DNA of 64,000 bases from Minisyncoccota bacterium (GTDB taxonomy: Bacteria; Patescibacteriota; Minisyncoccia; Phycocordibacterales; Phycocordibacteraceae), in assembly GCA_035627595.1 (NCBI GenBank), contig DASPLK010000002.1, positions 85,864 through 149,863 of the forward strand. The letters are read 5' to 3'. The notes beneath the pieces are model-generated. The model ran no database searches. It was not told where the DNA came from and saw only the letters and a program-made list of their open reading frames with translations. The translations under genes were made by a program, and so were the position numbers. Shown piece after piece: positions 57,851-60,427 of the stretch (position 1 is the stretch's first letter; each line of letters begins with the position of its first letter).

Positions 57851-59491
57851 CTAGGCAGGAAGCTCTGCGATGAAGCGGCTACCCTTCCCTTCGCCCTCGG
57901 ACTCTGCCCACACCTTGCCGTGGTGTGCCTCGATGATGTTCTTTACGATATAGAGACCAAAGCCAGTGGACTCAACGTTTACCTTTGTCGAGTTGGTGCC
58001 ATGACCACCTTCGGTAAAGAGCTTTGCCATATCTTCTTCGGTAATGCCGACGCCAGTATCCTCAACTTTGAAGCGAACCGTATCCTCGTCTTTGGTGAGT
58101 GAAACGTTTACGCTGCCCTTAAGGGTGTACTTGATGGAGTTATCGATAAGGTTCTTGAAAGCATTTACAAGCTGGACTCTATCGCCCTTCACAATAAGCG
58201 ACTCGGTGTCGCACGCGAACGTAAGCTGGAGCCCCTTCGCCTCAGCGCCTGGTCGGAGATCCTCCGCGATCTCCTCTATGAGCTTCTTCAGGTCGATGTC
58301 GCTCATGGTGTACGTCACCTTGCCGCTTTTGATGTTCGCGGCATTTAGAATCTCTTGAATCGTATTAACGCCCTTCGTATCAGATTTGAAGCCTTCCTCG
58401 AGCATCGGCTTCATGGTCTCAGGAACAGCACCGAGGTCGCCCTCCATGGCCATTGCGAAGATGTTGCGCGACTTCGTGAGGAATCCCTTGATCTGGTGCG
58501 TGATGAAGTGGATGAGGATGATCTGTTGCTTGTTTGCCTTCTCAAGCTCGCCTGCGAGTTCTTCGATGTGCTTTCGCTGCGCGATTTCGCGTCTGACGCT
58601 GCGTATAAGGATAACGCCAGCGATAAGCGTGAGGACGAGTGTGACGGTGACCAAACCGCGTGCGGTCATGTTCGAGACGAACGTATACTGTGAACCGACG
58701 AGTGCAATGAGTGCGATCAGGAGAGCTTGTGCGGCAAGGAGGCCCGCATGGAATGCCTTGAAGCGAACCACGAGTATGCCGATGTAGATGACGAATACGA
58801 TGATGCCAAAGTATCCAAACATCTCGAGCTCCGAATCCGGAAGGAATCCGATACTTGTAAGGTATGAGGCCAGGTACCCGGTGCTATAGAAGCTGAAGAG
58901 GAACAATAGGAGGCCTGTCCCCATGAGCACCACCTGCCGCCTGAAGCCCGGGAGTGCCTTCTTATAGCTACGGAGGAGAAGCACGGCGATCCATGCCATG
59001 GCGATGACGCCGAGCGACGTGTAGTAAAGCTCGTACCAGGTGTTCTCGAAACCGAACGCGTCACAGTCGGAGATATTGAAGCCAGTTAGGTTAAGTGCGG
59101 TTGGTGCAAGGACGATGACCGGCGCTAGGAGCGCTGCCAAGACTGCCTTCGTACGTACGGATAGGTCCTTCTTTTCAAGGAACGCGTGGGCGAAGTAAAT
59201 ACTGAAAATCGAAATAAGCGCTGAAAGCACGCCGAACATGGACCAGGAGAAGAGGAGAAAACCACTGTTTATGTTGGTCCAACTAATAAGGCTCAGAAGC
59301 GTCCAGCCGGAGAAGAAGGTACATATTGCAAAGAGAAGCCGGTTTGGGAGCGCCTTCCTGTCATTGGCGAGGATAAAGAGACCAGTTACGAACGCGATAA
59401 TGATCGCGGGAATATGGGAGTAGTAGAGGATGCCGCTCAGTTCGGGAACATAGAATAGGAACAGCGGTTCTGTGTAGTAGTGGCAGATCAT
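57851..59491 (-). CDS. sensor histidine kinase with about 8 N-terminal TM helices (no response regulator adjacent)
   Basis: HisKA-like region then HATPase_c (VEDTGVGI...GFGLYIV). Confidence 0.8.
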   Translation of the reverse strand: MICHYYTEPLFLFYVPELSGILYYSHIPAIIIAFVTGLFILANDRKALPNRLLFAICTFFSGWTLLSLISWTNINSGFLLFSWSMFGVLSALISIFSIYFAHAFLEKKDLSVRTKAVLAALLAPVIVLAPTALNLTGFNISDCDAFGFENTWYELYYTSLGVIAMAWIAVLLLRSYKKALPGFRRQVVLMGTGLLLFLFSFYSTGYLASYLTSIGFLPDSELEMFGYFGIIVFVIYIGILVVRFKAFHAGLLAAQALLIALIALVGSQYTFVSNMTARGLVTVTLVLTLIAGVILIRSVRREIAQRKHIEELAGELEKANKQQIILIHFITHQIKGFLTKSRNIFAMAMEGDLGAVPETMKPMLEEGFKSDTKGVNTIQEILNAANIKSGKVTYTMSDIDLKKLIEEIAEDLRPGAEAKGLQLTFACDTESLIVKGDRVQLVNAFKNLIDNSIKYTLKGSVNVSLTKDEDTVRFKVEDTGVGITEEDMAKLFTEGGHGTNSTKVNVESTGFGLYIVKNIIEAHHGKVWAESEGEGKGSRFIAELPA

Positions 59492-60000
59492 AGTGCGTCT
59501 ATCTTACGTTGTATGTAGTACTGAAAATAACCGGCATATCGTTCCTGCAGATCTTCCCTCCTCCAATCCCGATCTGTGATGGTTTTGCGGCAGGATGCTA
59601 GTCCGCATTCGCATGCAAGGCTGTACGGGAACTCTTCTGGGTTTGGCGCTTCGGCCAGGGTCATGGCGTAGTCGAACGTAATTTCCTCTCCCGCATCTAT
59701 GTCGCGCATAGCGACGAGGAATATCTGTCCTTTGAAACCTGCGTTCGGATCGCAGCTGTGATTGAAATGGTCTACCAACTGTTCCTGGCCTTCTTCCCGT
59801 ATTCCAAGGACGAGGTCATCATCAATCTGGTGTGCGAAGTCCCGAATGTGCTCAGGAAGATGCTGCTCCTCGTCGAGCGTCATAACAAATCCGCCGAACA
59901 CGGCGAGCCTGTCGTCTTTTATTATCGGGGCGCTCGCGAATACTCCTTTCCCGAGCGGGTGATCCTTGACAGTAAGCGATGGGTGCATCCAGGAAAACAT
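59488..60000 (-). CDS. SET-domain protein (putative protein-lysine methyltransferase), minimal 170 aa
   Basis: GKGVFA (GxG), NHSCDPN, EITFDY and a post-SET CxCxxxxC; overlaps the histidine kinase start by 4 nt. Confidence 0.75.
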   Translation of the reverse strand: MFSWMHPSLTVKDHPLGKGVFASAPIIKDDRLAVFGGFVMTLDEEQHLPEHIRDFAHQIDDDLVLGIREEGQEQLVDHFNHSCDPNAGFKGQIFLVAMRDIDAGEEITFDYAMTLAEAPNPEEFPYSLACECGLASCRKTITDRDWRREDLQERYAGYFQYYIQRKIDAL

Positions 60001-60004
60001 ACTG

Positions 60005-60427
60005 TTATTCGGCTTCAGCCGCCTCGTCTGTGACCTCTTCCTCCATGTCGTCCTCAGCTACCTCCTCAGTCTCCTGCCCAGATTCCTCGCCCGGCCCGAT
60101 GCAGTCCTCCTCGGTCAAGTCGCAGTACTCAATGGAGCATGTGCTATCAGTCTCGAGGCACACACTCGCGGCCTCACAGTCAGTGATATCTGGTCCGCAC
60201 TGCGCGTATACGTCTGCGGCGTGCTTCTGGACGAGCGTGTAGTAGTACACTTCTGTACACTCGTCGTCTTCACAGGCGACAAAGCAGTTCTCGACCTCTG
60301 GATCACAAGTGCCCTCGAACTGCACAGTGTAGTCCGCTTGTGCGATGAAGCGGTAATACGATGCGATGCCCGCAATTAGACACAGAGGAAGGAGAACGAT
60401 AGCGAGGAGATGCTGGCGAGCCGTCAT
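60005..60427 (-). CDS. membrane-anchored Cys-rich (10 Cys) protein with acidic C-terminal tail
   Basis: N-terminal TM; stop lies 5 nt upstream of the SET gene start. Confidence 0.5.
   Translation of the reverse strand: MTARQHLLAIVLLPLCLIAGIASYYRFIAQADYTVQFEGTCDPEVENCFVACEDDECTEVYYYTLVQKHAADVYAQCGPDITDCEAASVCLETDSTCSIEYCDLTEEDCIGPGEESGQETEEVAEDDMEEEVTDEAAEAE

Follow-up and report, generated by a model that had tools for sequence, protein, structure and literature searches.

Why a gene for a SET-domain methyltransferase should lie directly 5' of, and overlap, the gene of a sensor histidine kinase (HK) in a bacterium of the Patescibacteria is the question raised by the locus described here. The locus belongs to a stretch of 64,000 nucleotides from a Minisyncoccota bacterium (hereafter the window; positions 85,864 to 149,863 of the forward strand of contig DASPLK010000002.1, GenBank assembly GCA_035627595.1); coordinates given without a locus number are those of the window, and other loci carry L numbers. 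Its core consists of three minus-strand open reading frames (ORFs): a Cys-rich gene (60005..60427) whose 140-aa product has no Pfam match, the SET gene (59488..60000; 170 aa), predicted to specify a stand-alone SET-domain methyltransferase dependent on S-adenosylmethionine (SAM), and the HK gene (57851..59491; 546 aa). An initial annotation, made from the sequence alone, had described these ORFs with the same sizes and positions; the 4-nt overlap of SET and HK (ATGA) is as it reported, while its 5-nt gap between the Cys-rich and SET genes measures 4 nt (60001-60004). The answer that we tentatively favour, with a confidence a little short of even, is that Cys-rich, SET and HK form one transcription unit, the local form of a modular cassette built around a kinase with nine transmembrane (TM) helices, and that SET acts as a cytoplasmic amine N-methyltransferase of the cassette's pathway.

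The arrangement is not confined to the window. Of the 80 best genome loci in a survey from the SET side, 11 were of Patescibacteria type, and in eight of the 11 (L001, L005, L008, L011, L013, L015, L019 and L078) an orthologous multi-TM kinase gene directly follows SET, a Cys-rich homologue being encoded ahead of SET in L019 and L078 and between SET and HK in L001 and L015. Two more minus-strand genes precede the Cys-rich gene in the window, i.e. that of an EamA/DMT-family permease (60473..61393; 306 aa, about 10 TM helices) and that of U279 (61406..62245), a cytoplasmic protein of 279 aa whose family belongs to Patescibacteria and carries no annotation. The closest relative, with 80% SET identity, has the same block of 279 aa, EamA, 145 aa, SET and HK, and in relatives at 80-83% identity the five-gene block is identical and the genes after HK differ; in L004 the order is HK-x-U279-EamA, divergent from SET. 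The survey from the kinase side, in which metagenomes were scanned with the aligned 300-aa sensor domain and the genes of the resulting loci assigned with iterated profiles, gave 78 loci that were not cut by a contig edge just upstream of the kinase. SET and U279 tie there as the commonest gene directly upstream (23 loci each), followed by a Cys-rich gene in nine and a response regulator in one, with another gene or none in the remaining 22. Recurrent architectures are U279-HK, U279-SET-HK, SET-HK, EamA-Cys-HK and EamA-Cys-U279-HK. The distance from the SET stop to the HK start falls between -11 and +12 nt in 27 of 28 pairs, with 11 overlaps, and when 110 SET proteins were ordered on a neighbour-joining (NJ) tree the 37 HK-adjacent ones fell into two clusters of which they are nearly the sole members. 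The same gene pattern is seen in independent Pfam-annotated contigs. The arrangement recurs in dozens of independent contigs, which is far from chance, and since SET is found again and again directly 5' of an orthologous kinase, at a distance that hardly ever exceeds 12 nt, SET and the kinase cassette are plausibly linked in function. The cassette (U279, EamA, Cys-rich, SET, HK) is modular, restricted to Patescibacteria and larger than the three genes first described.

A promoter-like motif delimits the units within this block. The 9-mer TGNTATANT, which resembles an extended -10 element, matches its consensus nine times in the window (at 19398, 29676, 33254, 41167, 43151, 45733, 57830, 60441 and 62252), always on the minus strand, against 4.0 copies expected, a count reached in 0 of 100 shuffles, and every copy lies 6-25 nt ahead of an ATG that opens an ORF. 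Three copies fall around the cassette: TGCTATAGT (62252..62260), 6 nt 5' of the U279 ATG, is the putative promoter of U279-EamA; TGGTATACT (60441..60449), 13 nt 5' of the Cys-rich ATG, is the candidate promoter of Cys-rich-SET-HK; and TGCTATATT (57830..57838), 6 nt ahead of the ATG of the tyrosyl-tRNA synthetase (TyrRS) gene, would mark the downstream boundary. The motif is absent ahead of SET and HK. Two relatives at 80-83% identity (L081 and L083) contain only three matches each, in 20.5 kb and 12.9 kb, respectively, and these occupy the same three positions. Its presence ahead of U279, the Cys-rich gene and TyrRS and its absence ahead of SET and HK support a Cys-SET-HK transcription unit flanked by the predicted units U279-EamA and TyrRS-tRNA-Tyr, with leaders that would be very short or absent; in the source genome at large, the motif-to-ATG distances suggest leaderless or very-short-leader transcripts. 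TyrRS-tRNA-Tyr is probably a separate unit, because the closest relative has two different genes between HK and TyrRS. A generic scan for sigma-70 promoters and terminators found promoters not to be enriched and, within the genes, no more than short and weak hairpins; one of 6 bp within SET was considered as a terminator and not accepted. The co-transcription of the three genes that the initial annotation had postulated fits these motif positions, no internal promoter-like or convincing terminator-like site having been detected.

The SET protein itself appears fully equipped for catalysis. With Pfam PF00856, whose gathering threshold is 22.4 bits, it scores 52.2 bits (E 9.4e-14) over positions 1-104 of a 105-position profile; this comparison had been named beforehand as the one on which the SET assignment could fall. 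The motifs described at the outset are all in place, namely G17-K-G19 (GKG), N80 H81 S82 C83 D P85 N86 (NHSCDPN) and E105-I-T-F109-D110-Y111 (EITFDY), and they align with the catalytic motifs of MLL1; G37, N80, H81, S82, C83, P85, N86, D110 and Y111 are invariant in 27 homologues. Equally invariant in these are C83, C130, C132 and C137 (the NHxC Cys plus CxCx4C), the post-SET cysteines, which are predicted to form a Zn cluster. Judged by its sequence, the protein bears every motif of an active SET enzyme. Beyond this core it has a family-specific C-terminal extension of ~30 aa (DW..ELQ.KY.GYFQ.Y.Q.KI) with W146, L151, Y155, F159 and I167 invariant in the 27-member alignment. Its nearest solved relatives in a profile search of the PDB are the SET domains of MLL1/KMT2A (E 3e-19); the match to BurB (9l4t_A) is weaker than these, with E 3.8e-9 over query positions 82-145 only. 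Two stand-alone prokaryotic enzymes offer a comparison, i.e. Go1-SET of the archaeon Methanosarcina mazei, for which the chromatin protein MC1-alpha is a methylation substrate in vitro (PMC3980110), and BurB of Burkholderia thailandensis, which methylates free methionine (PMC12542666). With these and with MLL/KMT2 the window protein has in common the SET fold, GxG, NHxCxPN, the catalytic Tyr of (E)xxFDY, the post-SET CxCx4C zinc cluster, a size of ~170 aa without other domain and a cytoplasmic location; it differs from them in the extra C-terminal extension, in the partial character of the similarity to BurB and in the position of its gene directly 5' of, and overlapping, a sensor kinase gene.

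SET domains had been called uncommon in bacteria, and for this subfamily that description does not hold. We counted 1,179 matching protein clusters of 156-208 aa and at least 593 matching stretches in species-representative genomes, at 40-55% identity, spanning Patescibacteria, Chloroflexota, Gammaproteobacteria, Acidobacteriota, Omnitrophota, Spirochaetota, Methanoregula and DPANN archaea; the best named homologues are from Parcubacteria-type bacteria. Two further loci with SET homologues were recorded in the course of the survey. In L012 (2169-3708), on a contig labelled Nitrospirota, tandem SET genes precede a 154-aa ORF whose match is limited to the first part of the 9-TM sensor domain; the ORF could stem from a kinase gene that is truncated or frameshifted, or else the contig could be mis-binned from Patescibacteria. 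In L167 (6001-8748), and also in L009, both of Methanoregula type, a PAS-domain histidine kinase lies ~490 nt 3' of a SET homologue (~53% identical); many PAS kinases are present in these genomes and the proximity could be due to chance.

The kinase around which the cassette is organized combines a well-matched ATPase domain with unusual features elsewhere. HATPase_c is matched with 92.9 against 26.4 bits and the N, G1, F and G2 boxes are intact (NLIDNSIKYT, DTGVGI, LFTEGG and GFGLYIV). Residues 315-545 align to the DHp and CA domains of HK853 with E about 1e-18, Pfam HisKA not being called at E<0.01. The H-box, FITHQIKGF, is atypical in that it is without the usual acidic residue at +1, T/N at +4 and P at +5; its His aligns with the phospho-acceptor His in paralogues carrying the canonical SHQLRTPL. 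About nine TM helices with the N-terminus outside, one more than the eight counted in the initial annotation, are predicted from hydropathy and the positive-inside rule together with the helices in an AlphaFold2 model. The sensor domain (residues 1-300) matches no Pfam model, and in its family Cys3 and Cys143 are invariant and predicted to face outward. An exhaustive HMMER search retrieved 540 representatives of this domain (50%-identity clusters, E<=1e-3). Nearly all full-length members measure 530-600 aa and begin with the domain (residues 1-300), and this near-uniform length and domain position indicate one dedicated kinase family of a single architecture. The H-box variants differ in their surroundings: about 17 kinases carry the window-type box H[QEK][IV]KG[FSY], 13 of them with a Cys-rich neighbour and almost none with a regulator nearby, and among those with the canonical SHQLRTPLT a regulator is encoded within 4 kb in 14 of 49, usually as a protein of ~275 aa with two receiver domains (REC-REC), which in relatives with a canonical H-box often lies 1-2.4 kb downstream.

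The Cys-rich protein conforms to the first description of it as a product with an N-terminal TM segment, 10 extracytoplasmic cysteines and an acidic tail, with one additional Cys located in the TM segment, a signal anchor, to make 11; it contains 36 D/E against 3 K/R. Its family, represented by 37 ORFs in the loci, has in common the TM anchor, 8-10 conserved cysteines in the pattern DY.V..E..CDP..E.CF ... C..C ... YCD ... C and an acidic tail of variable sequence. We considered the protein as a lipoprotein or as one with a cleavable signal peptide and rejected both, given that neither the AQA site nor Cys16 is conserved in homologues. Cys-rich genes are usually accompanied by an EamA gene, and EamA again adjoins the Cys-rich gene in relatives; the window permease matches Pfam EamA with 50.3 bits against a cut-off of 28.2, with the N-terminal repeat alone called and TM segments that span the whole protein by hydropathy. 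The combination recalls the intramembrane- or loop-sensing kinases with accessory membrane proteins of BceS/BceAB, LiaS/LiaF and GraS/ApsS (acidic loop), in which a multi-TM kinase without large extracytoplasmic domain is likewise encoded with a small membrane-anchored partner and a transporter-type protein, and a further likeness may exist in the sensing of cations or of envelope state. The differences lie in the sensor, which here has nine TM helices, no Pfam model and two invariant outward-facing Cys; in the partner, a disulfide-rich acidic ectoprotein of a new family; in the transporter, which is of EamA/DMT rather than ABC type; and in the regulator, non-adjacent here, along with an H-box that departs from the canonical one at the three positions given above.

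For U279, the top fold match is BshC, of the ligase-like HUP fold. Its signature nucleotide-binding motifs (HIGH/HxGH and KMSKS) and a sequence-profile match were sought in the protein, and neither was found. It differs from BshC, MshC and the class I aminoacyl-tRNA synthetase-like HUP-fold ligases in having no family match at sequence level, no HIGH or KMSKS and only 279 aa. The five cassette proteins were also compared with the PADLOC defence models, to which the kinase alone gave a generic HATPase match (candidate PDC-M43B) and the other four none; a role in anti-phage defence was rejected, as nothing relevant to defence had been obtained.

The same kinds of gene recur just upstream of the kinase, namely SET, U279 and Cys-rich (usually with EamA) and, in relatives, also genes for a PurD-like ligase, deoxyhypusine synthase and the pair AdoMet decarboxylase (AdoMetDC) and spermidine synthase (SpdS). 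The gene next to the kinase on its upstream side is one for deoxyhypusine synthase (PF01916, 307 bits) in L140 (4641-5675) and L142 (4862-5938), and one for a PurD-like ATP-grasp ligase in L139 (3996-5351), L147 (4595-5911) and L152 (36-1436), both at 15-27 nt from the 9-TM kinase and in place of SET or U279. The PurD-like gene precedes SET in L008 and overlaps the start of SET in L166. The gene order is AdoMetDC-SpdS-U279-SET-HK in L148 and AdoMetDC/SpdS-x-Cys-SET-HK in L078; AdoMetDC and SpdS are found in L156 and L160 as well, and LPG_synthase_C-type transferases in L087 and L168. Loci outside the Patescibacteria show related neighbours. A Woesearchaeote locus (L017, 5986-10573) comprises SET, AdoMetDC, an LPG_synthase_C-like gene, an arginase-family gene, SET and deoxyhypusine synthase, a Nitrotoga locus (L055, 2523-6507) comprises AdoMetDC, a class I methyltransferase, SET, x, a deoxyhypusine-synthase-like gene and SET, and AdoMetDC lies within ~2 kb of SET in Omnitrophota (L023, L031) and Longilinea (L043). 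These gene orders, whose enrichment is a rough estimate, point to a cross-phylum link of the SET subfamily to polyamine and hypusine genes that would be independent of the kinase. The original three-gene picture was right about the genes that it named and missed these polyamine and amine-ligase genes, which take the same slots in relatives.

How the parts could work together can be outlined as follows. The membrane-anchored, disulfide-rich and strongly acidic ectoprotein would serve the outer loops of the kinase as an extracytoplasmic accessory or ligand binder, the ligand being of cation or polyamine type. The kinase would autophosphorylate on the His of FITHQIKGF and pass the signal to a non-adjacent regulator, such as the REC-REC protein of relatives. 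The ATGA overlap may keep SET in fixed proportion to the kinase, and SET would act in the cytoplasm as a SAM-dependent N-methyltransferase on a lysine-type primary amine, either a protein lysine or a polyamine-type metabolite, in a pathway that the cassette monitors or controls.

Several observations weigh against a functional pairing of SET and kinase. The cassette is set in a long synteny block of its lineage (grpE-dnaK-dnaJ ... cassette ... trpS-aspS), of which the window holds the end with the TyrRS, TrpRS and AspRS genes, and therefore part of the conserved adjacency may stem from vertical inheritance and not from function. In L004 and L163 SET and the kinase gene have divergent orientations, and a second SET copy in L165 is likewise divergent; about 60% of the family kinases have no SET within 3 kb; and SET homologues of 50-55% identity occur in Chloroflexota, Gammaproteobacteria, Methanoregula and DPANN archaea, all without this kinase family. 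Phmmer searches with CheY, PhoB, Spo0F and NarL (E<=1) found no receiver domain in the 64 kb of the window, in agreement with the earlier remark that the kinase has no response regulator nearby, and no polyamine or ATP-grasp gene is present there either. It is conceivable that the adjacency is nothing but inherited synteny, with SET methylating a housekeeping protein (ribosomal, elongation factor or nucleoid) and the kinase being an unrelated envelope sensor with no pathway in common, a possibility that we consider unlikely and nevertheless a serious one. Besides the conserved dnaKJ...trpS-aspS block, it draws on the high conservation of the SET subfamily across domains of life without this kinase, on the in vitro action of Go1-SET on the chromatin protein MC1-alpha (PMC3980110) and on the failure to find any lysine specific to SET-linked kinases. 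It does not sit easily with a SET-HK spacing of at most 12 nt, with frequent overlaps, among kinases that are only 33-50% identical and whose flanks change, nor with a SET that stays by the kinase despite changed order or orientation (L001, L015, L004, L163) or with the two clusters of HK-adjacent SETs in the NJ ordering. A scheme in which SET methylates the kinase or its response regulator, and thereby sets a mark for adaptation or regulation by analogy with CheR and the chemoreceptors, would suit the ATGA coupling and the tight spacing in 27/28 pairs, as expected of a stoichiometric partner, and we judge it improbable. Lysine frequencies were compared column by column in an alignment of 71 full-length kinases, 27 SET-linked and 44 SET-less, and no column had K>=0.7 in the former together with a low value in the latter, the largest difference being 0.41 vs 0.07 (SET may lie elsewhere in the genomes counted as SET-less). 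Close SET homologues exist moreover in organisms without this kinase, and no demethylase or reader gene recurs among the neighbourhood families. Of the signalling role once suggested for SET-mediated protein-lysine methylation, the link between SET and kinase thus stands as plausible and direct methylation of the kinase is without support.

The nature of the amine raises a further alternative. SET could be an N-methyltransferase for small molecules, with a polyamine or an amino-acid-type amine as substrate; U279 and the PurD-like ligases would work with it on a metabolite derived from a polyamine, with EamA as its transporter and the ectoprotein and kinase as its sensors, which we regard as fairly unlikely. 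To our knowledge nearly all characterised SET enzymes methylate protein lysines, which counts against this proposal, as does the sequence of the window protein, for which the MLL SET domain (E 3e-19) is a closer match than BurB with its partial hit (E 4e-9). In its favour, the subfamily adjoins genes for AdoMetDC, the arginase family (agmatinase), deoxyhypusine synthase and spermidine synthase in several phyla, the gene orders of L148 and L078 join AdoMetDC/SpdS to SET-HK, the PurD-like ATP-grasp gene adjoins SET in L166 and L008, the HUP fold of U279, with BshC as top match, is ligase-like, and BurB, itself among the PDB profile matches of SET, provides a precedent (PMC12542666). Polyamine genes also feed protein (deoxy)hypusination, however, and therefore a protein substrate for SET is still compatible with such neighbours; in addition, the window contains no polyamine or ATP-grasp gene of this kind, and each of SET, U279 and EamA is often present where the other two are missing. 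A more specific and distinctly unlikely version holds that the subfamily, which is prokaryote-wide, may not consist of conventional protein-lysine methyltransferases and may instead methylate the nitrogen of a polyamine-type amine or of a deoxyhypusine-like side chain derived from a polyamine, so that the cassette would be a polyamine/cation homeostasis circuit in which the multi-helix receptor kinase, resembling a G-protein-coupled receptor, senses the amine outside with the acidic disulfide-rich protein as co-receptor and the DMT permease, and SET, U279 and the ATP-grasp enzymes tailor the amine inside the cell. Hardly credible, in contrast, is the idea voiced in the initial annotation of a secreted eukaryote-like effector under kinase control, which would methylate host histones. 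Bacteria of the candidate phyla radiation (CPR), or Patescibacteria, now the phylum Minisyncoccota with Paceibacterota as a synonym, are often episymbionts, and pathogens do have SET effectors, such as Chlamydia NUE, Legionella RomA/LegAS4 and Bacillus anthracis BaSET (PMC3980110), with which the window protein has a SET catalytic domain in a bacterium in common. It differs from them in coming from a non-pathogenic CPR lineage, in belonging to a broad environmental subfamily found in free-living bacteria and archaea, and in its lack of secretion features: a hydropathy scan of SET revealed no signal peptide, hydrophobic N-terminus or hydrophobic segment, as had been anticipated, and no secretion-system gene recurs among the neighbourhood families. 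The hosts of Patescibacteria known to us are prokaryotes, which is a further point against an effector. The wide prokaryotic spread of the subfamily, its invariant motifs and the missing hydrophobic N-terminus remove the premise of a rare, eukaryote-like effector, and SET is best regarded as an enzyme that resides in the cytoplasm, with a plausible link to signalling or to the chemistry of amines.

Some features of the flanks deserve mention. Downstream of HK, TyrRS (56570..57823, minus strand) is followed by tRNA-Tyr(GTA) and by a strong terminator with a 13-bp stem (56450-56421), the whole extending over 56421-57838 (-). Just ahead of tRNA-Tyr, a sigma-70-like site (TTGAAA-17-TATAGT) overlaps with the TyrRS 3' end, and an Rfam search over 55.5-64 kb returned tRNA-Tyr alone, without T-box or riboswitch. 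Between TrpRS and tRNA-Tyr, on the strand opposite to its neighbours, lies a cytidine-deaminase-like ORF (55807-56391 (+), 194 aa) that scores below the Pfam threshold (20.3 vs 25 bits). On the other side of the cassette two adjacent genes, 62407-62928 (+) and 63031-63414 (+), encode paralogous small proteins with 35% identity over 85 aa and a common VDT.WHTHI motif, the second of which is barely above the Pfam GRDP-like threshold (23.2 vs 22.7 bits).

A large share of bacterial diversity belongs to the Patescibacteria, whose signalling is almost unstudied. The components of the cassette are of known kinds; full-text literature searches on SET and histidine kinases in Patescibacteria retrieved no report of the pairing, of the cassette or of its three families. 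The present analysis defines a lineage-wide cassette on three families without Pfam model, i.e. the 9-TM sensor domain, the Cys-rich ectoprotein and U279, and identifies a SET methyltransferase as the recurrent and, as the overlaps suggest, translationally coupled partner of a histidine kinase. The role of free-living prokaryotic SET proteins becomes testable in this way, the gene context nominating amines of the polyamine/hypusine pathway or proteins of the kinase pathway as substrate classes. If SET does act on polyamines, its chemistry would extend beyond proteins, for which BurB is the single precedent.

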